Counted from the first letter of the stretch, positions 390 through 10,630 are shown. The stretch: DNA of 16,184 bases from Anaerolineae bacterium (GCA_050288085.1 JBNKDD010000118.1:1-16184); one strand, 5' to 3'. Made by a program: numbers and translations. Notes: generated by a model from the sequence alone, not told the origin.

Positions 390-2738
390 TTAGTCCGGTG
401 GCAGTCTCCGCAGTTTGTCATACGCAGATTGTGCCTGCTGTGGTTGGTCGCTCAATTCATATGCCTGGGCTAAATGTAGATATAAGTCTCGAAGCTGAGA
501 TTGGACTTCAACGCTGCCGGGCAATTCTTCTTTAGCCAGTTGGAGCGCTTTTTCCAGATGTGCCTTCGCTTCGTTCACGGCAGCGAGGCGGAGCGCTTCT
601 TTCCCGGCAGCCAGGCTGTGGCGAAACGCGACTTCCGCCAGCCCGGCAGCGATCGCATGATAGGCCAACACAGCCTTCGAGCCCCCATCTACCTCAAGGA
701 CACCCAATGCGCGACGATGAAAAAGCCGCCGCCGCGCATCCCCGGCCTCGGTATAGACCACATCACGGATCATATTATGGGTGAATGTGTAAGTACTGGC
801 AGTACCAGTCTGTGCCACTTCAAGCAAGAGCTGCCCGCTGACTAATTCGTCCAGGGCTGGCAGCCCGATATCTTCTGCCAAGTTGGAGATGGCGCACAGG
901 CGCTCGAAAGTAAGCCTCAACTCGAGGACAGCTCCGGCTGCCAGGAGCGAAAATGCGTTCGGGCTGAGGCGGCTCAAACGAGAGCGGAGCACCGCCCGTA
1001 CAGTAGATGGGACGCGAATCGCCTCCCCCAGATCATGCTCCGCATCAACCTCAAAACCCCATTGGCTCTCCCTCAACAGTTTCGGGTGGAGTACCCTACG
1101 CTCGAGCATGTCCTTCAGGGATTCCATCAAATAAAATGGATGTCCGCGAGTTTCGTTGAACACCCACTGGGCGAAATCGGCATCGGAGGGCTCCAGTATG
1201 GACAGCATCATTTGCACTGTATCCTGTTCCTCTAACGATCCCAGCTCAAGATGAAACGGCCCCAATTCACGCCCCATCCGTGCCAGCCACTCAATCAGAT
1301 TTGACAGCCTGGGTTGGACGGGCGGCTGCAAGGCCTCTGAGCGCAGGCTGACCAACAACAGGATCCGCGCTTCGCTCTCTCGCCAGCGGCGGACGGCGTA
1401 CACCAACCAGTCCAGCGTCGCGCTGTCCGCCCACTGTAAATCGTCCACGAACAGCACCAGCGGCGACTGACCAGCCAGGGCCAGCGTCAACTGCACCAGA
1501 GATTCGAAAAGCTGCGTTCGACCGCCATCCACTTCCAAATAAGCGGCAGGCAGCTCAGCGTAAAGTTCGCGTAATTCCGGCAGCAGGTGACTCAACGGGG
1601 CTAACCAGGTTTCCCCTAACACATCCGCCGGTGTGTCTTCCCGATCAATCCAGGGGCGGACAGCCTCGATCAGCGGCTGGTACGACATGCGACTACCACT
1701 CTCAAATGCGCGTCCTTGCAGCACATTGGCTCCCTGGGAAACACTCCAGGCCAGGAATGCCCGAGCCAGCCGGGTTTTGCCAATCCCTGCCTCGCCGCGC
1801 AGCACCACGGTTTGGGGCCGACCTGTGGCAGCATATCCGTAGTGCACCACCAGGGCTTGGTACTCATTTGTGCGCCCTGTGAATAAGTTTCCAAGAAAAG
1901 TAACGGGTGTATCGGGCTGCCGCTGCTGGGGCACAGCGCGACGGGCAGGGTGTTGAGTGCGAATGCGCATAGCCAGTGCCTCTGTGTCTGGTTCTGGCTT
2001 CACGCTCAATTCAGCCGCCAGAATGGTGCGGCAGGCATCATAGGTCCCGAGAGCCTGACCCCGCTCGCCCGCTGCAAAGTGGGCACGCATCTTGCGGCGA
2101 TAGGCAACTTCGTTCAGCGCATCCAGTGAGATCCAGAGCGAGGTGGTCTCGGCTGTAGCAGCAAATTCGCCTCTCGTAAACTGGATTTCTGACAGCCGGT
2201 CGAGGATCAGGTTCAGGCGACGCCGCCAGACTTCGCGCTGGACGTTTGCCCAATCGTCAAAGCCGGGCGCGTCGCCCAGTGAAAACCCGGTGAGAAAATC
2301 GCCACGGTAGCAGGTTATGGCTGAACGCAGCAAGGGCAGGCTGGCCGCATTCTCCGGTTGTACACGGTTGGAGCGGTCGGCACGGGCCAGGGCATAGGCC
2401 TGTTCCACCGTGTGCAGATCAAGATCGATATCGGCGTCCGAATTCAGCGCCAGTGTATGGTGCGTGATAGAGAGGAAGAAGGCCTGGGCTGAACTCAGGG
2501 CGGTTTTCAGGTGACCGAGCGTGTTACGGAGTGACGCGTAGCTGCGCTCCTGGTTTGATTCCGGCCAGAGAAGGGCAGCTAGATGCTCACGCGGTTGTGA
2601 TCCACCCTCAAGTGCCAGATAGATTAGCAACGCCAGTGTTTTACGCGTGGGAAACGTCAGCAGCTTTTCACCAAGACGCACTTCTGGTGGCCCCAGCAAA
2701 TAGAGTTGTAACGATGGTGAATAGCCGGACACGATCAC
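390..2738 (-). CDS. AfsR/SARP-family transcriptional regulator with STAND NTPase domain (OmpR-type wHTH + BTAD + P-loop NB-ARC-like ATPase + C-terminal helical/TPR-like region)
   Basis: The N-terminus LLGPPEVRLGEKLLTFPTRKTLALLIYLAL matches the SARP winged-helix DNA-binding domain, followed by a BTAD-like helical region. Walker A GEAGIGKTRLARAF and Walker B LVLFVDDLQWAD (hhhhDD + LQWAD, typical of AfsR/LuxR-type STAND proteins) are present, then a long helical C-terminus. The first start in frame is GTG at 2738. The true start is uncertain; an alternative is the TTG at codon 14. Confidence 0.8.
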   Translation of the reverse strand: MIVSGYSPSLQLYLLGPPEVRLGEKLLTFPTRKTLALLIYLALEGGSQPREHLAALLWPESNQERSYASLRNTLGHLKTALSSAQAFFLSITHHTLALNSDADIDLDLHTVEQAYALARADRSNRVQPENAASLPLLRSAITCYRGDFLTGFSLGDAPGFDDWANVQREVWRRRLNLILDRLSEIQFTRGEFAATAETTSLWISLDALNEVAYRRKMRAHFAAGERGQALGTYDACRTILAAELSVKPEPDTEALAMRIRTQHPARRAVPQQRQPDTPVTFLGNLFTGRTNEYQALVVHYGYAATGRPQTVVLRGEAGIGKTRLARAFLAWSVSQGANVLQGRAFESGSRMSYQPLIEAVRPWIDREDTPADVLGETWLAPLSHLLPELRELYAELPAAYLEVDGGRTQLFESLVQLTLALAGQSPLVLFVDDLQWADSATLDWLVYAVRRWRESEARILLLVSLRSEALQPPVQPRLSNLIEWLARMGRELGPFHLELGSLEEQDTVQMMLSILEPSDADFAQWVFNETRGHPFYLMESLKDMLERRVLHPKLLRESQWGFEVDAEHDLGEAIRVPSTVRAVLRSRLSRLSPNAFSLLAAGAVLELRLTFERLCAISNLAEDIGLPALDELVSGQLLLEVAQTGTASTYTFTHNMIRDVVYTEAGDARRRLFHRRALGVLEVDGGSKAVLAYHAIAAGLAEVAFRHSLAAGKEALRLAAVNEAKAHLEKALQLAKEELPGSVEVQSQLRDLYLHLAQAYELSDQPQQAQSAYDKLRRLPPD

Positions 2739-2806
2739 ATTCCTTGTAACGCTCTTGAGACGCTACTTCATTATACTGAATTTATGAAGCTCAAAACCAG
2801 ACTTGA
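2684..2806. repeat. Copy 1 of a ~120 bp direct repeat. It spans the first ~18 codons and upstream promoter-like region of the SARP regulator gene.
   Basis: About 85-90% identical to 8590-8712 in the same orientation. The shared core is gagttgtaa(c/t)gatggtgaatagccggacacg(a/c)tcacattccttg..acgctcttgagac.ctacttcattatact.aattta.gaag..caaaacc. Both + strand ORF-track translations end in MVNSRTRSHSL, which confirms the duplication. Confidence 0.75.
2770..2800 (-). promoter_or_regulatory. Promoter-like element for the SARP regulator gene (perfect TATAAT -10 on the minus strand, weak -35 candidates)
   Basis: The minus strand reads ...tggttttgagcttcataaattcagTATAATgaag.... The TATAAT hexamer (plus 2770-2775) lies ~32 nt upstream of the GTG start at 2738. 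The -35 candidates TTGAGC (13 nt spacer) and TTTTGA (15 nt spacer) are suboptimal. The element is conserved in repeat copy 2. Confidence 0.3.
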
Positions 2807-2972
2807 GTCAGCCTGGAACAGGTCATATGAACCGGTTTGGCCGGATAAAAACTAACCCGGTTGACCCGTATTTCCGCCCCCTCAGATGTCAATCGCAATG
2901 AGGTTTACCGGCTCGTAGATGGGGCATTCAAGCTGGTTGTTAGTAAGAGAAACGTTCTGGAGGATACTCTCA

Positions 2973-3356
2973 ATGCCCGGCATTATTCTGACGTTCCCGA
3001 TTGTGACCGGCAAGGTTGAAGCCTGGCGGCGTTTTTGCCAGGAATTAGCCGGTTCTCGGCGGCAAATGTATGAAGCATCTCGCCAGCGGCTGGGTATCAC
3101 GCTTGAGCGGTTGGCGCTGGTAGAGAGCGCCTTCGGATCGGCGGCAGTGACTACTCTGGAAGCCCACGATGTAAGTCAGGCACTGGGCCAAATTATTACA
3201 TCCGACCTTCCATTTGATCACTGGTATCGAGAGAAAATACAGGAGCTGCATGGAGTCAATTTATCCAGGTATGAGGACTTCTCCCAACAAGCACCACCCC
3301 CAGAAAATCAGGAGCTGCTCTTTGAGTGGGTGTTACCTTCTGGCATTGGTGATTGA
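2973..3356 (+). CDS. Hypothetical protein (~127 aa), divergently oriented from the SARP regulator
   Basis: ORF 2919-3356. The likely start is ATG 2973 (MPGIILTFPIVTGKVEAWRRF...), preceded by GGAGGA at 2956-2961 with a 9-11 nt spacing. I recognise no domain. Confidence 0.5.
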   Translation: MPGIILTFPIVTGKVEAWRRFCQELAGSRRQMYEASRQRLGITLERLALVESAFGSAAVTTLEAHDVSQALGQIITSDLPFDHWYREKIQELHGVNLSRYEDFSQQAPPPENQELLFEWVLPSGIGD

Positions 3357-3493
3357 CGCGGCTTAGCTCAAAATCGGCGGGTTGACTAGGGGCACACTCG
3401 ACTGAGAAGCACCGGACGAACGCATCTTGAAACACTATCGATACTTCTAATGGTAACGAATAAGAAACGATTAGTGTGGGAGAAAGAAACCAA

Positions 3494-3772
3494 ATGAATA
3501 CCATTATATGGCTTATCGCAGGGGCGTTTGTCGGCTGGCTCGCAAGCGTCATCATGAGTACCAACAGGCGGCAGGGGCTGGTTATCGACATTATGGCCGG
3601 ACTCGTCGGCGCGTTTCTGGCGGGTTATTTCCTGGCGCCTTTCCTTGGTATCTCGATCATCGATCAGAATAGTTTCAGTATCCCGACGCTGCTCGTATCC
3701 CTCCTGGGCACAGTCATCTTGCTGGCCGTCGTGCGCTTGTTCAACCCCCATGGGCGACGACACGCAGATTAA
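3494..3772 (+). CDS. GlsB/YeaQ/YmgE family (transglycosylase-associated, PF04226-like) small stress membrane protein
   Basis: MNTIIWLIAGAFVGWLASVIMS...GLVIDIMAGLVGAFLAGYF is the characteristic glycine-rich double-TM pattern of this family. The RBS GGAGAAAG lies 8 nt upstream of ATG 3494. Confidence 0.8.
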   Translation: MNTIIWLIAGAFVGWLASVIMSTNRRQGLVIDIMAGLVGAFLAGYFLAPFLGISIIDQNSFSIPTLLVSLLGTVILLAVVRLFNPHGRRHAD

Positions 3773-4002
3773 TGGGGTGGTGGAATACCGGCTGAACAAG
3801 TGATTGATTAGCCTGGCAATGAGCAGCACGCTTCAGAAGCATGAGGCTTCGGCTGGTAGTCGGCAAGAGGTTCAACACGTATCGTAAACACAGATTACAT
3901 CGGCATCTAAAGATTGCAATGGGCGCAGCTGCATGCGCTCTGCGCCTATTGCATGGAATGTAGCACTCCCAATCCCTCGCATCGAAAAAAGAGGAGGCAA
4001 GG

Positions 4003-4374
4003 ATGGAACTCTCAGTCTCAATGATTTTCAGAGCCGGGATTGTCTGGGGGGTTGTGGCGATCTTGCTGGCTATTGTCAGCAGTGTGCTCGCGCCGTCCCT
4101 GACGGTGGTAGCTGGTCTCACACTGGTGACTTTTGCCTTCACGATGTCAGGTATCCACTACGCCGCCAAATCACACAGTGCCTCTTTGAGCAGCGGCCTG
4201 GGTGGTGCGCTGGCAGGTGTGGTGGCCGCCAATCTACTCTTGCTGCTCCGGTTTGTGCCACTGAATCTTCCCGTTCCGGGTGATTCGATGACAGATTTAA
4301 TAGGTACGCTGGTTGTTGGCTTACTGATAGGTGCAGCCGGAGGCCTGGCCTTCAACGTTATCGTACGAAAATAA
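4003..4374 (+). CDS. Small integral membrane protein (about 4 predicted TM helices), function unknown
   Basis: Strong RBS AGGAGG 5 nt upstream of ATG 4003. The protein is hydrophobic and Gly/Ala/Leu-rich throughout (MELSVSMIFRAGIVWGVVAILLAIV...). Confidence 0.6.
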   Translation: MELSVSMIFRAGIVWGVVAILLAIVSSVLAPSLTVVAGLTLVTFAFTMSGIHYAAKSHSASLSSGLGGALAGVVAANLLLLLRFVPLNLPVPGDSMTDLIGTLVVGLLIGAAGGLAFNVIVRK

Positions 4375-4431
4375 AGGAAGCCACCACCTACGATATGCAA
4401 AGTTTCGAGTAAACATAGGAATAAAACAAAC

Positions 4432-4776
4432 ATGAATGATCAAAATCAAGCTCTTAGTAATACAAAGTACTTCTTAGCCGGGTTGCTGGCAGGTGGCCTT
4501 GTTGGCATGGCGACAATGCTGCTGCTGGCACCCCAATCGGGGGAAAAGACCCGTGGCGAGATTCAGCTCAAAGGCATCAAATTGCGCGATCAGGCCACTG
4601 AGACTGCAAAAGGAGCCATGGAGCAGGCTCGCCAGACAACTCAGCAGATCACAGGCGATGTGCGCGAGAAGGCTGAAGAACTCCAGCAGCGCGGACACGA
4701 TTTGCTCGGCGAGCAACGGGAACGCCTGTCCACCTTCGTAGAAGGTAAGAACAAGGACATCGAGGACCCGACTTAA
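4432..4776 (+). CDS. YtxH-like (DUF948) general-stress protein with N-terminal TM anchor
   Basis: KYFLAGLLAGGLVGMATMLLLAPQSGEKTRGEI is followed by a charged, helical, Q/E/R-rich tail. This matches the YtxH signature FxxGxxxGxxxGxLxAPxSGxETR. Confidence 0.7.
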   Translation: MNDQNQALSNTKYFLAGLLAGGLVGMATMLLLAPQSGEKTRGEIQLKGIKLRDQATETAKGAMEQARQTTQQITGDVREKAEELQQRGHDLLGEQRERLSTFVEGKNKDIEDPT

Positions 4777-4876
4777 CAACCGGAGAGCTTTGCATAACTC
4801 TACCTCAGACTGGGGAGGGGACGGGGGACATTCTATAGGGGTCAGGTTATGCGAAGCCCTAAAAGACGAGGATGAC

Positions 4877-5896
4877 ATGGACAGTAAACAGAAAATCTCA
4901 ACTAAGAACAACCTGGTCTGGCGCGAAGCAGTGGCCAGATACCAAAATCCGGATACCTTGCGCAGCACATGGCAGATCATCAATTCAATTGGCCCGTACC
5001 TTATCTTGTGGGTTTTGATGTGGCTTAGTCTGAGCATAAGCTATTGGCTCACTCTGGGACTGGCAGTCGTGGCAGCTGGCTTTATGGTGCGGATCTTCAT
5101 TATTTTCCATGATTGCGGCCACGGATCGTTCTTTAAGTCGAAGAAGGCGAATAAGCTCTGGGGTGGCATTACGGGGATTTTGACCTTTACACCTTTTGAG
5201 CAGTGGCGGCACGATCATGCACTGCATCACGCCTCGGCAGGAGACCTGGACAGACGCGGCTTTGGGGATATCTGGACGCTTACTTACCAGGAATACCTTG
5301 CCCTGCCTCGATTAAAACGGCTTGGATACCGGTTATTCCGCCACCCTCTGGTTATGTTTGGTTTTGGCCCTATATACACATTTGTCATAAAAACGCGATT
5401 CGCAAAACGTCATGATAGCCCACAGGCGCGCAGGAGTGTGCTTATCACCAACCTCGCTTTGCTGGGGATCATCATCTCTGCACATTTCTTAATTGGCCTC
5501 CAGGCCTATATCCTGATCCAACTTCCAATTATGGTAATTGGTGGGGCGGTAGGTGTATGGCTGTTTTACGTACAACACACCTTCGAGCCACCCTACTGGG
5601 AACGTCATACTGAATGGGATTTCACGACAGCAGCATTGCAGGGCAGTTCCTTCTATAAACTGCCCAAAGTGTTACAGTGGTTTACCGGGAATATTGGTAT
5701 TCATCACATTCATCACCTAAGCCCACTCATTCCAAATTACTATCTGGCTCGGTGCCAGGATGAAAACGATATCTTCCACAACATTGAGCCGCTCACCATG
5801 CGGGCCAGCCTCAGGTCGCTGAATATGCGCGTCTGGGATGAAAAATTGGAGAAGATGCTAAGTTTCCGCGAGATGCGGCGACTCTATGATCAATAG
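4877..5896 (+). CDS. des: Membrane acyl-lipid (Delta5-type, Des-like) fatty acid desaturase
   Basis: Three histidine boxes are present: HDCGHGSFF, WRHDHALHHASAGDLDRRG and HHIHHL. TM segments and the overall layout are collinear with Bacillus subtilis Des. The ORF opens at 4790. Alignment to Des favours the ATG at 4877 (MDSKQKIS...). Confidence 0.85.
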   Translation: MDSKQKISTKNNLVWREAVARYQNPDTLRSTWQIINSIGPYLILWVLMWLSLSISYWLTLGLAVVAAGFMVRIFIIFHDCGHGSFFKSKKANKLWGGITGILTFTPFEQWRHDHALHHASAGDLDRRGFGDIWTLTYQEYLALPRLKRLGYRLFRHPLVMFGFGPIYTFVIKTRFAKRHDSPQARRSVLITNLALLGIIISAHFLIGLQAYILIQLPIMVIGGAVGVWLFYVQHTFEPPYWERHTEWDFTTAALQGSSFYKLPKVLQWFTGNIGIHHIHHLSPLIPNYYLARCQDENDIFHNIEPLTMRASLRSLNMRVWDEKLEKMLSFREMRRLYDQ

Positions 5897-6009
5897 CCAT
5901 GTGGCGCTAAAGGCACCACCAGTGATGTCTGCTGATTCTCATTGGTTGAGTGCCTATAGCAATTTGGACACCTATTTTGGTCAAGAGATCTATTAACAAA
6001 GGAAATGCT

Positions 6010-6870
6010 ATGAGAATAATAATTGGCCCACTCTATACCCTGCGACCTTACGAGCGGGGCATCCAGGAAACCCTGGGTAAGTACAGCCGATTTGTGATGC
6101 CTGGGCTGGGCTTTCAAATCCCGCTTGTTCATATCACTCGCGTGCGCGATGTCCGCGAGCATACGATGGATATTGAACCTCAACCGGTGATCACCAAAGA
6201 TAACGTTGAGATTACAGTAGATGGTGTCATGTGGGTGCGCCCCACCGTCGATGAAGAAGGCATCAAGCGCACTTTTTATAACATCGACAATTGGAAGCGA
6301 GCAGTCATCCAGTTGGCAATGACGAATCTGCGTCAGGAGTTTGGCGAATTGTCGCTGGATGAGAGCCTGGTGGCTCGCGAGAAAATTGCCAACAATTTGC
6401 AGCGAATCCTGAACAGCTTCGCTGTCGAATGGGGACTGACTGTCAGCAAGGTAGAAATCCGCCTGATTGACCCCCCCGACGATATCAAAAAGGCCATGCA
6501 TAAACAGAAGACAGCCGAGCAAGAACGGCGTTCCATGAAACTGCTGGCGACGGGTGAGTTCGAGGCCGCCCAACAAGAAAAGTTGGCACTCATCCAGCGT
6601 GCTGAGGGAGAGCGCGAGGCAGTGATTCAAGTAGCCCAGGGCAAGGCTGAGGCCATTCGCCTGGTCAATGAGGCTGCCCACCAATACTTCGTCGGCAATG
6701 CTCAGGCTCTCAAGCAAATGGAGATGGTCGAAACCTCCCTACGTGAGAATGCCAAGGTCGTCATCACTGAACACGGTATCAGCCCGACCCTGCTTCTGGG
6801 CAGCCTGCCGGTCAGTGTACCGAGGGATGGAAACGGTGCTGGAGTTAAGACAAGAGAAATGAAGGAATAG
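6010..6870 (+). CDS. SPFH/band-7 (stomatin/prohibitin-like) membrane microdomain protein
   Basis: YERGIQETLGKYSRFVMPGLGFQIPLVHI...PQPVITKDNVEITVDGVMWVR is followed by a long A/E/Q-rich coiled-coil tail, which together form the canonical SPFH core. The RBS AAGGAAA lies 5 nt upstream of ATG 6010. The ORF opens at 5950. Confidence 0.85.
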   Translation: MRIIIGPLYTLRPYERGIQETLGKYSRFVMPGLGFQIPLVHITRVRDVREHTMDIEPQPVITKDNVEITVDGVMWVRPTVDEEGIKRTFYNIDNWKRAVIQLAMTNLRQEFGELSLDESLVAREKIANNLQRILNSFAVEWGLTVSKVEIRLIDPPDDIKKAMHKQKTAEQERRSMKLLATGEFEAAQQEKLALIQRAEGEREAVIQVAQGKAEAIRLVNEAAHQYFVGNAQALKQMEMVETSLRENAKVVITEHGISPTLLLGSLPVSVPRDGNGAGVKTREMKE

Positions 6871-6898
6871 TTGATGAAAGACGTGAGGAACAAGAGTA

Positions 6899-6985
6899 AT
6901 GGAGACCACCCTGTATGCCATCGCATTATTTGTGATTGTGGCCCTTTCGCTGGTAGCAGTCAGACAGAATAGGGACAGGCGGTAG
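6899..6985 (+). CDS. Putative 28-aa hydrophobic micropeptide (METTLYAIALFVIVALSLVAVRQNRDRR)
   Basis: It sits in the 240 bp gap between the SPFH and radical-SAM genes. GAGGAA lies 8 nt upstream of ATG 6899. It has a single TM-like helix followed by a basic tail. An alternative overlapping 33-aa Cys-rich ORF (6874-6975, MKDVRNKSNGDHPVCHRIICDCGPFAGSSQTE) has its own AAGGAA RBS. Confidence 0.35.
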   Translation: METTLYAIALFVIVALSLVAVRQNRDRR

Positions 6986-7109
6986 CACACACACAAGATC
7001 ACACAGAAGATGAAATGACTTCCGAATACAGGAAGCGGAACGGCTCGAAGCTGAGATAGAGAATCCCGCCAATGACACCTGCTTATGCTCAAATCAGGAG
7101 GAAAAATCG

Positions 7110-8588
7110 ATGAGAATTTTGTTAGTTTACCCTGAGTTCCCGGACACTTTTTGGAGTTTCAAGCATGCGCTCAAGTTTGTCCGCAAAAAGGCGGTTGCAC
7201 CGCCATTAGGCCTGTTGACGGTGGCGGCTATGTTGCCTGCCAGGTGGGAAAAACGGCTGGTTGATCTCAATGTAACCGGCTTGAACCACGAAGACCTGGT
7301 ATGGGCTGACTATGTCTTTATCAGCGCAATGGCCATACAGCGTGATTCGGTTCAAACCGTCATTGCTGAGTGCAAAGAAGTCGGGGTGAAGGTCGTAGCC
7401 GGAGGTCCGTTATTCACAATGGAATATGAGCAATTCCCTGATGTTGATCACCTCGTACTTAATGAAGCTGAATTGACGCTGCCACCCTTTCTGGCAGACC
7501 TGGCTAATGGGTGTGCTCAACCGATCTACACTACAACTGAATACCCGGACATCAGCCAAACTCCAACACCCCTCTGGGAGTTGGTCAATTTCAAACATTA
7601 CGATACGGTCAGCATCCAGTTTTCCCGCGGCTGCCCCTATAACTGTGAGTTCTGCAATGTGACAACCCTATTAGGTCACCGTCCGCGTCTGAAGACCGCT
7701 GCACAGATCATCGCCGAACTGGATGGCCTGTATGACCTGGGCTGGCGAAAAGGTGTCTTCTTTGTGGACGATAACTTTATCGGCAACAAGAAGGAGCTCA
7801 AGTCCACGGTGCTGCCCGCCTTGATCGAATGGCGGAAAGGCAAGGTGGGGATGCCATTTAACACCGAGGCATCCATCAACCTGGCCGACGATCCTGGCCT
7901 GATGCAGCTTATGACAGATGCCGGGTTTACCACAGTTTTTGTTGGCATTGAAACGCCCAACGAAGATAGTTTGATTGAATGCAGCAAGACGCAGAACAAG
8001 GGCCGTGACCTGGTCGAGAGTGTCAAACGACTCCACCGGGCAGGGCTCCAGGTACAGGGCGGCTTCATTGTTGGCTTTGACAGCGATACCCCATCGGTCT
8101 TTCAGCAGCAGATCGATTTCATCCAGCAGAGTGGTGTTGTAACGGCCATGGTAGGGCTACTGCAAGCTCCTCGAGGGACACGTCTACATGAGCGGCTGCA
8201 GCGAGAAGGCCGGATCGCCGATGAATTTTCAGGGGATAATGTGAGTGGCTCGACCAATATCATCCCCGCAATGAACCTGGACACGCTGCGGGAAGGCTAC
8301 CGTGAGATACTCGATCATATTTATACTCCAAAGTTCTATTATGACCGGGTCATCACCTTTCTGCGTGAGTACAAACCACCTCAGATCAAAAGTCCTCTTG
8401 ATTTTCAACACCTGATGGCTTTTTGGCGCTCGATTTATCAACTGGGTATTCGTGGGGCAGAACGTGTGCAGTATTGGAGACTGTTTTTTTGGACTCTATT
8501 CCGGCGTCCGCGGCTATTTCCGCTGGCAATCACACTGGCTATCTATGGTTTCCATTTCCGCAAGGTAGCCGAACTGCATGTAGGCTGA
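7110..8588 (+). CDS. B12-binding domain radical SAM protein with C-terminal DUF4070
   Basis: The N-terminal cobalamin-binding region reads MRILLVYPEFPDTFWSFKHALKFVRKKAVAPPLGLLTVAAM. The rSAM cluster motif CPYNCEFC (CxxxCxxC) is present. The C-terminal FYYDRVITFLREYKPP region is DUF4070-like. Strong RBS AGGAGGA 7 nt upstream of the start. Confidence 0.9.
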   Translation: MRILLVYPEFPDTFWSFKHALKFVRKKAVAPPLGLLTVAAMLPARWEKRLVDLNVTGLNHEDLVWADYVFISAMAIQRDSVQTVIAECKEVGVKVVAGGPLFTMEYEQFPDVDHLVLNEAELTLPPFLADLANGCAQPIYTTTEYPDISQTPTPLWELVNFKHYDTVSIQFSRGCPYNCEFCNVTTLLGHRPRLKTAAQIIAELDGLYDLGWRKGVFFVDDNFIGNKKELKSTVLPALIEWRKGKVGMPFNTEASINLADDPGLMQLMTDAGFTTVFVGIETPNEDSLIECSKTQNKGRDLVESVKRLHRAGLQVQGGFIVGFDSDTPSVFQQQIDFIQQSGVVTAMVGLLQAPRGTRLHERLQREGRIADEFSGDNVSGSTNIIPAMNLDTLREGYREILDHIYTPKFYYDRVITFLREYKPPQIKSPLDFQHLMAFWRSIYQLGIRGAERVQYWRLFFWTLFRRPRLFPLAITLAIYGFHFRKVAELHVG

Positions 8589-8589
8589 A

Positions 8590-8712
8590 GGTGGCCCTGG
8601 TAGATGGAGTTGTAATGATGGTGAATAGCCGGACACGCTCACATTCCTTGCGACGCTCTTGAGACTCTACTTCATTATACTAAATTTAGGAAGTCCAAAA
8701 CCGACGTATAGT
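8590..8712. repeat. Copy 2 of the ~120 bp direct repeat (orphan copy; the SARP-like 5' end is decayed)
   Basis: Aligns to 2684-2806. The minus-strand reading gives (V)SVSGYSPSLQLHLPGPP versus the regulator's MIVSGYSPSLQLYLLGPP, so it is a remnant of a SARP N-terminus and promoter with no gene body behind it. It is followed by a perfect hairpin, AAAACCGAC gtata GTCGGTTTT, at 8697-8719. Confidence 0.75.
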
Positions 8713-8792
8713 CGGTTTTGAGTGAAAGTGGCGAAGGTTCAGTAGATAGTCGAAATCTCATAAATATAGTAACTCTACAAAAGAGGCATAAA

Positions 8793-9197
8793 ATGGCACA
8801 AGATGAGAAGAAGGTAAGTTTTAAACAAAGGTGGAATGAAATTAGACAAAGGTGGGATAAAGCCCGTCCAACGAAAAAGATTGTCTTCTGGATTTCGGTA
8901 GCCGTTAGTATTCTAACGATGATTGTTGGCTTCAGTTGGGGGGGATGGGTTACGAGTAGTAAAGCCGAGCTAATGGCTGAGGAGGCCGTTGTCGAGCGCC
9001 TGTCGTTGATTTGTGTTGACCAGTTTAAGCAAGATCCGGAGACAGAGCAGAAGCTCATAGAGTTTGTCGAAACAAGTTCTTACAAACAAGATGATTATGT
9101 CAGAGATCAAGGTTGGGCGACCATGTTTGGTGATGAGGAGCCCGATAAAAACGTTGCCGACGCCTGTGCAAAACTGATCGCGCAGATCGACCAGTAG
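8793..9197 (+). CDS. Hypothetical protein with one TM helix and an acidic C-terminus
   Basis: ORF 8718-9197. The likely start is ATG 8793 (MAQDEKKVSFKQRWNEI...) with AAGAGG upstream. It has a single hydrophobic segment, IVFWISVAVSILTMIVGFSWGGW. It lies in an AT-richer segment, and I recognise no family. Confidence 0.4.
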   Translation: MAQDEKKVSFKQRWNEIRQRWDKARPTKKIVFWISVAVSILTMIVGFSWGGWVTSSKAELMAEEAVVERLSLICVDQFKQDPETEQKLIEFVETSSYKQDDYVRDQGWATMFGDEEPDKNVADACAKLIAQIDQ

Positions 9198-9452
9198 ACA
9201 AAACAGTCTACCTCAAAATCAGCCTTTCACCAGTTGTCATAGTCCTATGTATCGCATTCACATTACTATGTCTACTCGACTTTCGCCGTTAGTGTAGCCC
9301 TATCTGGAGTTTCGCGTTCTTGCGTCCGTGGAATCGGCGAAACGGCAAATATTGAATATTGGGAAGTACAGGATATTTGTCCAGTGTTTGTTGGTGAGTT
9401 TGATAGTCATGTAGGCTAGTATACCCCTAAATGTCAACAAGACAGATGATGA

Positions 9453-9743
9453 CTCAAGATAATAAATGCAGGGGTGAATGGCCCGGTGATCATTGACAGA
9501 GTAAGGCGCGCCCAGGTAGAAGAAAACGATATGTGCCTGGGCTATGATGTGATGTCGGGTAAGCTTGTCAACATGCTCGAAGCAGGCATTATCGACCCGG
9601 TGAAAGTCACGTGTGGCGCTGTGTCCAATGCGACCAGTATTGCAGCTATGATCCTGACAACCGAGGCATTGGTGACAGACAAGCCTAAAAGGAAGCAGAA
9701 GCAACCCATTAGCCCGAATGGGTACGACGACTTCGATTACTAA
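9453..9743 (+). pseudogene. groEL: Relic of a chaperonin GroEL (Cpn60) C-terminus, ~96 codons, truncated at the 5' side
   Basis: LKIINAGVNGPVIIDRVRRAQVEENDMCLGYDVMSGKLVNMLEAGIIDPVKVTCGAVSNATSIAAMILTTEALVTDKPK is collinear with the GroEL equatorial C-terminal region (...IAENAG.EGSVIV.K.....GYNAATGE.V.M.EAGI.DP.KVTRSAL.NAASVA.L.LTTEA.V.DKP.). An in-frame stop lies immediately upstream at 9450-9452. No GroEL-like sequence is found in any frame of 9300-9450. The tail KRKQKQPISPNGYDDFDY replaces the usual Gly-Met repeat. Confidence 0.65.
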
Positions 9744-9901
9744 TAGGGCTTACGCAGTTGAGTATGGGACAAGGAGCTTAAGCCCTTTGCCCAGGCACAG
9801 CATCAACTTGAATTGCGTGAGTCCTAACCATGTGATCGTAGTATATGAGGTGGGGCAATGGCAGCCCCATGAGTCATTGACAGAATGAGGAGTTGACATC
9901 G

Positions 9902-10030
9902 ATGGCAAACAAAAAAGGCAAGGCCAAACGCAAACCATTATCCAAAGGATATCGCAAGTATGTGCGGCGATTGAAGCAAGAGGCTCGGAAGAACGGCACC
10001 ATTTACCGGGGGAATGTGAGGAACAATTGA
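9902..10030 (+). CDS. Putative 42-aa very basic micro-protein (MANKKGKAKRKPLSKGYRKYVRRLKQEARKNGTIYRGNVRNN)
   Basis: GAGGAG lies 9 nt upstream of ATG 9902. It is preceded by a tandem TTGACA...TTGACA and a 6 bp-stem hairpin (tggggc aatggca gcccca). The product is about 40% Lys/Arg. It is too short to appear in the supplied ORF track. Confidence 0.35.
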   Translation: MANKKGKAKRKPLSKGYRKYVRRLKQEARKNGTIYRGNVRNN

Positions 10031-10318
10031 TTTGATCCGGCGGGGAAGCCTACCTGGGGGATGGCAACCATCACCAGACAGTAAGAATGTTAGAAACTCC
10101 AAGAATACCTGGAAAAGCTCGGCGGTGGTCTGGTGGTGATTCAAGTGGGAGCCGTGACCCAAACTGAGCATAAGAGAAAAGCATTGTGCCGAGAACGTGG
10201 TGCACATGATTCATGCTGCAATTGAAGGGAGATTGCACCCAGTGAAGATGTAACGCTTATGAATATGGTAATGACACTTGTAGAGAGTGGCAAGAGTCTG
10301 AGTGAAGGAGAATGCCTC

Positions 10319-10630
10319 ATGACAAACAAACAAAGGATCAAAACCCAGCTATCCAAAAGCCAGATAACAACCGCTGCTCTGACACAGAAGGCGGAATCTG
10401 AACTAGTAGACGTATTCAATCGTATTAACCGTCTGCAGGTGCTTTTGCGCCGATTTGTCCCTTTCGTTGCGAGCGAATCCGCTCAAATCGTCACCCAGAC
10501 TCAGTCCACCTTGAAAACAGCCGGCCCCAAGCTCAGCCGAGTTATGGACTTCCAAAATGCGCAGAATAACCGAGATCGATTAGAGAATTGGAAAAACGAG
10601 GGTGAGAGAACTGAGCATGTCTCAGCATAA
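10319..10630 (+). CDS. Hypothetical helical/coiled-coil-like protein (~103 aa). It overlaps the start of the glycosyltransferase gene by 14 nt.
   Basis: ORF 10259-10630. ATG 10319 (MTNKQRIKTQLSK...) is preceded by GAAGGAG 7 nt upstream. The protein is Q/S/T-rich and I recognise no domain. Confidence 0.4.
   Translation: MTNKQRIKTQLSKSQITTAALTQKAESELVDVFNRINRLQVLLRRFVPFVASESAQIVTQTQSTLKTAGPKLSRVMDFQNAQNNRDRLENWKNEGERTEHVSA

Follow-up and report, generated by a model that had tools for sequence, protein, structure and literature searches.

The question raised by the stretch of DNA considered here, 16,184 nucleotides (nt) from an Anaerolineae bacterium (GCA_050288085.1, JBNKDD010000118.1:1-16184) and referred to throughout as the window, is why a short segment carrying the promoter and the first codons of an AfsR-like regulator gene of the SARP family is found a second time, in the same orientation, beyond a 5.8 kb block of membrane and stress genes. 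A preliminary description of the window had offered two answers: the repeats could be a dispersed promoter-plus-start cassette, or they could be the scar left when a block of desaturase, SPFH and radical SAM genes was inserted or rearranged next to the regulator. When the window is compared with related loci, all of them from metagenome-assembled genomes (MAGs) or metagenome contigs, the second copy is most likely a young member of a promoter family, and it faces a small gene on its right, named MAQ here after its first residues (MAQDEKK...). More specifically, it is probably, if far from certainly, a duplicate of the bidirectional promoter-operator shared by the regulator and a divergent stress operon, with some passenger codons attached. 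The main result is a corrective one: no mobile stress-gene cassette is bounded by these repeats, and annotation of the window as an island would be wrong.

The repeats themselves are real. A repeat search of the whole window delimits them at 2686-2798 (copy 1) and 8590-8702 (copy 2), two direct repeats of 113 nt that are 88% identical without gaps and lie 5904 nt apart from start to start. Their similarity breaks off sharply at both ends in a MAFFT alignment, and the preliminary description, right about the existence, orientation and identity of the pair, had set its right-hand limits (2806 and 8712) about 10 nt too generously. The pair is the sole long direct-repeat family of the 16 kb, and since all other direct repeats are far shorter and less identical (20–25 nt at 72–85%), it is the product neither of chance nor of low complexity, as had already been maintained. 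Both copies stand at equivalent places in L001 (Logan ERR15087767, an independent assembly), where the regulator is 92% identical, the DNA about 90–92% identical and the gene order that of the window; in a third assembly, L130 (JGI 3300077083), copy 2 stands beside the 3' end of the radical SAM gene. An assembly artefact as the origin of this structure is ruled out by its presence in three independent samples. Because L001 has both copies in the same places and the same gene order, the duplication is older than the split between the window and L001. Copy 2 is 86.7% identical to copy 1 and 85.1% identical to the orthologous segment of a more distant locus, L002 (copy 1 versus L002, 86.0%); being about equally far from both, it may have come either from an old duplication or from a related genome. 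As in a segmental duplication, the homology is continuous and far above chance, and it includes 16–18 passenger codons behind which there is no gene body.

Copy 1 lies at the start of the regulator gene (390-2738, minus strand), whose product of 782 amino acids (aa) as listed (MIVSGYSPSLQLYLLGPP) contains the Pfam domains BTAD (5e-19) and AAA_16 (1.5e-22) and matches, over residues 8-265, the SARP domain of Streptomyces AfsR (PDB 8hvr_I, E=7.6e-8). Its order of domains, that is, SARP (winged helix plus BTAD), P-loop NTPase (AAA_16) and a long C-terminal region, is also that of AfsR, and the protein can be described as an AfsR-like “large SARP”. The host, in contrast with that of the Streptomyces systems, is a member of the Anaerolineae (Chloroflexota) and not an actinomycete, and the orthologs, 63–92% identical, all derive from Anaerolineae or Chloroflexota MAGs and metagenomes; exact-protein look-ups returned no record identical to the SARP or the radical SAM protein of the window. 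To our knowledge, work on SARP regulators has been confined almost entirely to actinomycetes and their antibiotic clusters, and a search of the available literature found no papers on such regulators in Anaerolineae or Chloroflexi. The listed GTG start (2738) stands only about 4 nt past an AAGGA, and a second GTG (2732), the one used by the 780-aa ortholog P0001, is probably the true start.

Read on the minus strand, copy 1 opens with a poorly matching -35 region and continues with AGTATAAT, a leader of some 22–25 nt whose last bases are the Shine-Dalgarno sequence AAGGA, the GTG starts and the first 16–18 codons of the regulator, and the TATAAT that forms the regulator's own -10 (2770-2775, minus strand) overlaps a TATACT on the plus strand. 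The earlier statements that the repeat carries the promoter-like region, and that copy 1 spans the GTG start, the first codons and a minus-strand TATAAT, are thus borne out. Between the window and L001, copy 1 differs at one of 113 nt where 8–9 differences would be expected, and because this identity of 99.1% exceeds that of the flanks (91–93%), the copy is constrained over its entire length. Over larger distances the constraint is concentrated in a core. The string AGTATAAT-N8-GTCTCAAnAnCGTCaCAAGGA hardly changes across 40 regulator-linked sites, even before orthologs only 59% identical, and the sequence around it diverges; at 73% protein identity, the flanks are already unalignable and the core is almost unchanged.

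Seen from the operon strand, this 39-nt core comprises two 11-bp direct repeats, 6 nt and a -10-like TATACT, with the consensus TTGtGACgCTn TTGaGACtCTa across 60 unique sites and the variable positions at the ends of each 11-mer. In copy 1 the core occupies 2744-2777 (plus strand), the repeats being TTGTAACGCTC (2744-2754) and TTGAGACGCTA (2755-2765), followed by the 6-nt spacer and TATACT (2772-2777). The other strand of the core offers the overlapping TATAAT, a leader of about 22 nt made of the repeats themselves and AAGGAG, which serve the regulator gene. A non-coding stretch so highly conserved might instead encode a structured RNA in two copies (a small RNA, a riboswitch or a leader), which is scarcely credible, given that the whole window yields no Rfam match at E<=1, that shuffled sequence folds as well as either copy does, whichever strand is taken (z -0.9, -1.05, +1.4 and -0.8) and that the leader has only about 22 nt; besides, the variable positions break the sole small potential stem, and it is the 11-nt periodic pattern that is conserved.

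The distribution of the core was surveyed in two ways. A scan of one genome per species with the pattern TATAATN8GTCTCAANANCGTNNCAAGGA found 38 stretches, all in Chloroflexota MAGs and nearly all directly upstream of a regulator ortholog. Further sites were collected from related loci (about 1 Mb) by a search for repeat pairs and then by a position weight matrix (PWM), giving 67 sites, of which 40 unique ones are linked to the regulator and 20 unique ones are not, with one more upstream of the radical SAM gene in L125–L127. The roughly 20 repeat-pair sites away from regulators compare with about 0.03 that would be expected by chance in about 1 Mb, according to our calculation. Sites of the young type are over-sampled among the primary hits of the scan, those of the old type being secondary hits in the flanks. 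Within the window, copies 1 and 2 are the only boxes that the PWM scores above the range of shuffled sequence.

All unlinked sites keep the box, the TATACT and the spacing AGTAT(A/G)-N10-GTCTCAA, and most of them lack both the AT that would complete TATAAT and the AAGGAG on the regulator side; since one set of signals is kept and the other mostly lost, the two overlapping promoters on opposite strands are separable. Wherever the sequence is readable, a gene or open reading frame (ORF) follows such a site shortly downstream in the operon direction, those that can be named being Transgly_assoc, a YtxH-like gene, an RRM protein, a small basic protein, a Zn-ribbon gene followed by a radical SAM gene, a radical SAM gene itself, and MAQ. 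In several genomes, the start of the Zn-ribbon gene or of the gene for p127, a 127-aa protein, lies 35–60 nt from the core, and at so short a distance the promoter must overlap the core. Sequence comparison therefore predicts an operon-direction promoter (box plus TATACT) at all sites, and a regulator-direction promoter at regulator genes and young duplicates. Of the dispersed promoter-plus-start cassette first proposed, the promoter and operator part has stood up, for the core is dispersed, recurs at 60 unique sites when copies are counted in relatives, and has been duplicated repeatedly in Anaerolineae; the start part is a decaying hitch-hiker, which in copy 2 of L001 has suffered a 2-nt indel and which older sites lack. 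Upstream of Transgly_assoc, weaker boxes occur in L001 (5940, score 25) and L002 (1901, score 22), and the equivalent place in the window (3425-3465) has the second repeat mutated from TTGAGAC to TCGATAC and no longer scores.

The geometry of the box recalls that of known SARP sites. In the target promoters of SARPs, direct repeats recur every 11 bp, one helical turn, or every 22 bp, and 8 bp separate the 3' repeat from the -10. The afs box of AfsR is a 22-bp site of two 11-bp repeats, centred near -29.5, that extends from -40 to -19 across a poor -35, and each SARP protomer contacts the first 8 bp of a repeat (PMC10936776). The box of the window is likewise 22 bp long and built of two 11-bp direct repeats, a period shown by both copies. 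In the Anaerolineae family, the conserved bases are concentrated in the first 7–9 positions of each repeat, and the box ends 6 nt before the -10-like hexamer, which would place it at -40 to -19 if TATACT stands at -12 to -7; no -35-like hexamer is found 16–18 nt from TATACT. Unlike the afs box, the Anaerolineae box doubles as part of the leader of its regulator gene and is accompanied by two overlapping -10s on opposite strands. Its repeat, TTGnGACnCT, differs as well, Streptomyces SARP heptamers being of the TCGAG type. The apparent targets are small stress and membrane proteins and not an antibiotic cluster, in contrast with the Streptomyces systems compared (AfsR-afsS and the targets of ActII-ORF4 and DnrI).

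Binding of the regulator to the box is put forward on two grounds, the architecture of the box and its co-location with the gene. The box might be functional and yet be bound by some regulator other than the adjacent SARP, or be an element for an alternative σ factor, and some boxes do belong to loci in which the available sequence has no visible SARP gene (L055). Such a binder is rather improbable: 40 of the 60 unique boxes lie directly at the start of a SARP gene, tandem 11-bp repeats suit winged-helix binding of the SARP/OmpR type and the geometry of the afs box, and the distances from the repeats to TATACT, 11 and 22 nt, are wrong for a -35/-10 pair.

Copy 2 begins one base past the stop codon of the radical SAM gene (8586-8588) and contains, on the minus strand, an orphan promoter, leader, start and 16–18 codons. 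As had been described, it encodes a decayed stub (VSVSGYSPSLQLHLPGPP) with no regulator body behind it, in an ORF of 42 aa (8514-8642, minus strand) that runs antisense into the 3' end of the radical SAM gene. Its core (8648-8681, plus strand) consists of TTGCGACGCTC (8648-8658), TTGAGACTCTA (8659-8669), the spacer and TATACT (8676-8681) and faces MAQ; the minus-strand TATAAT (8674-8679) faces the end of the radical SAM gene. With this -10, the Shine-Dalgarno sequence and the start all intact, the orphan copy could still fire an antisense transcript into that gene, a possibility raised at the outset that stands. Every family-invariant position of the core is retained, and the PWM score, 51.6, is the best in the window, above the 49.9 of copy 1. 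In this respect copy 2 departs from ordinary gene remnants, which its coding stub, like the gene fragments to its right, otherwise resembles.

The box and TATACT of copy 2 point towards MAQ (8793-9197, plus strand; 134 aa, one predicted membrane helix, no Pfam family), 112 nt downstream, with a hairpin and a second σ70-like site between. Four genomes (the window, L001, L130 and L129), representing two contexts, have MAQ linked to copy 2 or to what is left of it; in L129, where MAQ is 87% identical at the protein level, the surroundings are different: MAQ is immediately preceded by an IS3 transposase, and the sequence becomes homologous to the window only from 8675 on, precisely where the TATACT of copy 2 stands. 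The hairpin, a 10-bp stem (CAAAACCGAC-GTATA-GTCGGTTTTG, 8696-8720) at the right edge of copy 2, is paired in the window, L001 and L130, with one loop base different in L130; folding of 8686-8800 gives z=-2.2, and a terminator scan did not call the hairpin. It may be terminator-like in both directions, or else a leader hairpin of MAQ. Within MAQ, a 21-nt tandem duplication (8821-8861, TTAAACAAAGGTGGAATGAA / TTAGACAAAGGTGGGATAAA) adds seven in-frame residues relative to L001 and L004 (127 aa).

A number of observations weigh against copy 2 being a working promoter-operator of MAQ. The scan demanded TATAAT and AAGGA, so that conservation at these places is partly built in among the sites derived from it. 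The heptamer lies 10 nt from TATACT and not 8, and agreement with the SARP spacing requires either counting from the 22-bp box or reading CATTAT, 8 nt from CTTGAGA, as the -10; the spacing between box and TATACT is invariant in all sites. As a whole, copy 2 evolves at the background rate (93.8% identity between the window and L001, against 91–94% nearby), and the test for constraint in its core is marginal (P about 0.05, three sequences). The hairpin stands between the predicted plus-strand start and MAQ and could terminate that transcript, while MAQ has a σ70-like site of its own (TAGATA-16-TATAGT, 8743-8770, from a promoter scan). In L004, MAQ directly follows another gene and has no box; in L001 it is apparently frameshifted or split; and in L129 the IS3 element has removed the box.

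Several of these features would also be expected if copy 2 were a neutral relic of a duplicated or imported second regulator locus that has collapsed, its core being intact only because it is young and regulating nothing. This is the strongest competitor, still unlikely but to be taken seriously. Copy 2 sits amid gene wreckage, namely the last nine codons of a gene for a 115-aa protein and fragments of groEL, and the series of regulator stub, box, remnant of the 115-aa gene, MAQ and groEL is colinear with the intact locus L004. Its divergence between strains is that of the background, L001 has both the 2-nt indel in copy 2 and the split MAQ, the segment is absent from the close relatives L123 and L124, and L015 has a comparable decayed second locus. 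On the other hand, among the 12 variable columns of the 113 nt in the window, L001 and L130, eight fall in the former coding part (including the 2-nt indel), three lie beyond the -10 and one falls in the 39-nt core (binomial P=0.046, from three sequences only). Furthermore, boxes persist at many older sites after the decay of the regulator side, as expected if they are retained for the promoter, and the link between copy 2 and MAQ is kept in two genomic contexts. A genome can have a second regulator locus, from which an orphan like copy 2 could derive: one MAG (JAHDLB01) contains two full-length regulator paralogs on separate contigs (L014 and L022, 70% and 68% identical to that of the window), each with its own intact core. 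The regulator gene is apparently fragmented or frameshifted in the MAGs of L012, L020, L026, L040 and L046, in the last of which only regulator fragments (aa 315-769) are found, at 5610-6388, beside the radical SAM gene; some of these fragmented genes may reflect long-read indel errors rather than true pseudogenes.

The preferred reading, that copy 2 is a duplicated promoter-operator, gains from the fact that such duplications have occurred repeatedly. The duplication in L024 is limited to the 39-nt core (87% identity, 2 kb apart, with DAGK-like and PAP2-like genes between), one copy serving the Zn-ribbon/p127 side and the other the regulator and the inserted DAGK-PAP2 pair. L021 has an inverted copy of about 205 nt immediately past the stop of the regulator, which faces a small basic ORF and in which TATAAT has become TATAGT, and boxes occupy the same inverted position, just past the regulator stop, in L016 and L040. 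An inverted pair of boxes flanks a cation-efflux gene in L039, and L015 has a box with the remnant of a p127/Transgly fusion and no regulator, on the same contig as an intact pair in L025. End points and orientations differ from one duplicate to the next (window/L001/L130, L015, L021, L024, L039). Taken together, the duplicates look like a young-to-old series in which the older ones have lost the regulator-side signals. The process is similar to promoter capture during the growth of a regulon, where a short regulatory segment with a coding stub is copied before another gene, the stub decays and the core persists; what goes beyond it is that the same core has been duplicated again and again, several times in inverted form just past the regulator stop (L016, L021, L040).

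Whether the repeats also delimit the genes between them is a separate matter. These genes form an operon-like block (2973-8588, plus strand), divergent from the regulator and recognized from Pfam domains and ORFs, in an order common to L001 and partly to L002. It comprises p127 (2973-3356), for which there is no Pfam family, Transgly_assoc (3476-3772), a membrane protein of 123 aa (4003-4374), YtxH (4432-4776), a fatty-acid desaturase (4790-5896), an SPFH/Band_7 protein (5950-6870) and a B12-radical SAM/DUF4070 protein (rSAM, 7110-8588), all on the plus strand. One could suspect the repeats of being a scar, be it a long target duplication, att-like sites or Campbell-type junctions, that delimits this 5.8 kb block as a unit, in view of their direct orientation, of the exactness with which they flank the block, and of a gene content that varies between strains, the desaturase being replaced in L001. 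Synteny, the comparison by which the insertion scar was to be judged, contradicts it at both ends. On the left, most mapped loci have p127 divergent from the regulator and next to it, which makes the left part of the block ancestral, and in L002 (regulator 84% identical) p127, Transgly_assoc, the membrane protein and YtxH adjoin the regulator, on a contig that stops short of the position of copy 2. On the right, L123 and L124 have rSAM (95% identical as protein, 92% as DNA), and L123 also SPFH (98%), with copy 2 absent; in L123 a homolog of window 9739-10436 begins within about 30 nt of the rSAM stop. Copy 2 is missing from L125–L128 as well (rSAM 87–90%), and no copy-2-like motif follows rSAM in any of 80 metagenomic loci found by a scan with the rSAM protein (best identity 80%).

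Nor does the block have the equipment of a mobile element: a Pfam search found no integrase or transposase domain in any ORF between the repeats, and a repeat search of the window found no terminal inverted repeats of the block. The varied end points and orientations of the duplicates elsewhere also speak against a site-specific mechanism. Conversely, L129 has the copy 2 remnant and MAQ with no rSAM on its 7.4 kb contig, so that copy 2 travels with MAQ even where rSAM is lacking. Among the relatives compared, neither presence or absence of the whole unit nor an empty site with a single repeat was found. An origin of the repeats as ends of a mobile or inserted block is thus exceedingly improbable and essentially excluded. 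The position of the desaturase is a variable slot inside the operon, occupied in L001 (3507-4461) by an ORF of 132 aa and a DUF5661 gene, with internal duplications there that involve the 3' end of SPFH (127 nt) and the beginning of DUF5661 (92 nt).

What does move is the segment on the other side of the junction. To the right of copy 2 follow MAQ, a C-terminal groEL fragment, a basic ORF of 45 aa and glycosyltransferase genes, and the comparisons define a variable, indel-prone segment (8598-9738: copy 2, hairpin, remnant, MAQ and groEL fragment) that moves and decays on its own; judged by its company, copy 2 is linked to MAQ and not to the block on the left. The remnant (8743-8792, plus strand) is the 3' end of the 115-aa gene that precedes MAQ in L004, blastn homology to L004 beginning at 8743 and tblastn aligning nine of nine residues at 8762-8788. 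The groEL piece (9465-9743, plus strand; aa 456-538 by tblastn) is a pseudogene fragment that matches Cpn60_TCP1 (3.1e-11) at profile positions 426-489 only. In L130 the order is rSAM 3' end, copy 2, hairpin, MAQ and the N-terminus of groEL, and because L130 has the N-terminus where the window has a C-terminal piece, the version of the window has been further shortened. The MAQ piece is 90% identical in DNA to that of L004, whose regulator is only 74% identical, which hints at exchange. The neighbours of MAQ in L129 (3464-5233), an IS3-family transposase (HTH_Tnp_1, rve) and an actin-like ALP_N gene (ParM-type), suggest that the copy 2-MAQ module there is in a plasmid or mobile context; an rve_3 fragment lies two genes away from MAQ in L004. 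As to polarity, distant relatives commonly have the small basic ORF directly beside rSAM, which favours insertion of the segment 8598-9738, and a possible 13-nt remnant of the copy 2 end in L123 favours its loss from L123 and L124.

If the core works as its likeness to the afs box suggests, a dimer of the regulator's SARP domain would bind the 22-bp box, which would lie at about -40 to -19 with TATACT as the -10, and binding would activate a promoter that lacks a -35 and reads away from the regulator. On the regulator strand, the same box would cover about +1 to +22, the regulator's own transcription start, where binding would lead to negative autoregulation. Copy 2 would place this promoter-operator before MAQ and so bring MAQ under the same control, leaving a possibly active regulator-type promoter that may fire antisense into the 3' end of rSAM. 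Each duplicate would begin as a promoter with a gene stub, and would then lose the regulator-side signals while keeping the promoter on the operon side. A wider model, which we offer tentatively and hold to be somewhat less probable than its negation, is that the Anaerolineae AfsR-like regulator controls a stress or dormancy regulon through an afs-box-like two-way switch, and that this regulon grows by duplication of the 39-nt unit; its members would be p127, Transgly_assoc, YtxH, the small basic protein, the RRM protein, the B12-radical SAM protein and MAQ. Duplication of an operator is an ordinary route by which a regulator gains a target, and there is nothing surprising in it as a kind of event. 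As a by-product, the comparison provides an exactly delimited candidate operator (two TTGnGACnCTn repeats, 6 nt and TATACT) for a regulator that is widely conserved in Anaerolineae but uncharacterised, as well as a list of sites that amounts to a testable candidate regulon of small stress proteins, and the natural series of operator duplicates, from young to old, illustrates a way in which new genes can join a regulon.

The stretch from rSAM to the glycosyltransferase genes is littered with broken genes. Behind the first groEL fragment (aa 456-538, at 9465-9716) and the small basic ORF comes a second (aa 363-425, at 10094-10279), in an order reversed with respect to groEL, and this second one is also present in L123. 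A long palindrome (GGGCTTACGCAGTT...AAGGAGCTTAAGCCCTTTGCCC, 9744-9830), common to L123 and L124, where it comes directly after rSAM, is probably a bidirectional terminator; as for its being the native terminator of groEL, which would mark the indel as a deletion in L123, no palindrome homologous to the part at about 9750-9795 was found after groEL in L021 or L004. The small basic ORF itself (9893-10030 in the window; about 45–80 aa, very basic, ...KKGKAKRKPLSKGYRKYVRRLKQEARKNG, no Pfam family) lies directly 3' of the B12-radical SAM/DUF4070 gene in many Chloroflexota loci (L027, L046, L049, L055, L057, L123), and in L021 and L037 it has a box promoter of its own.

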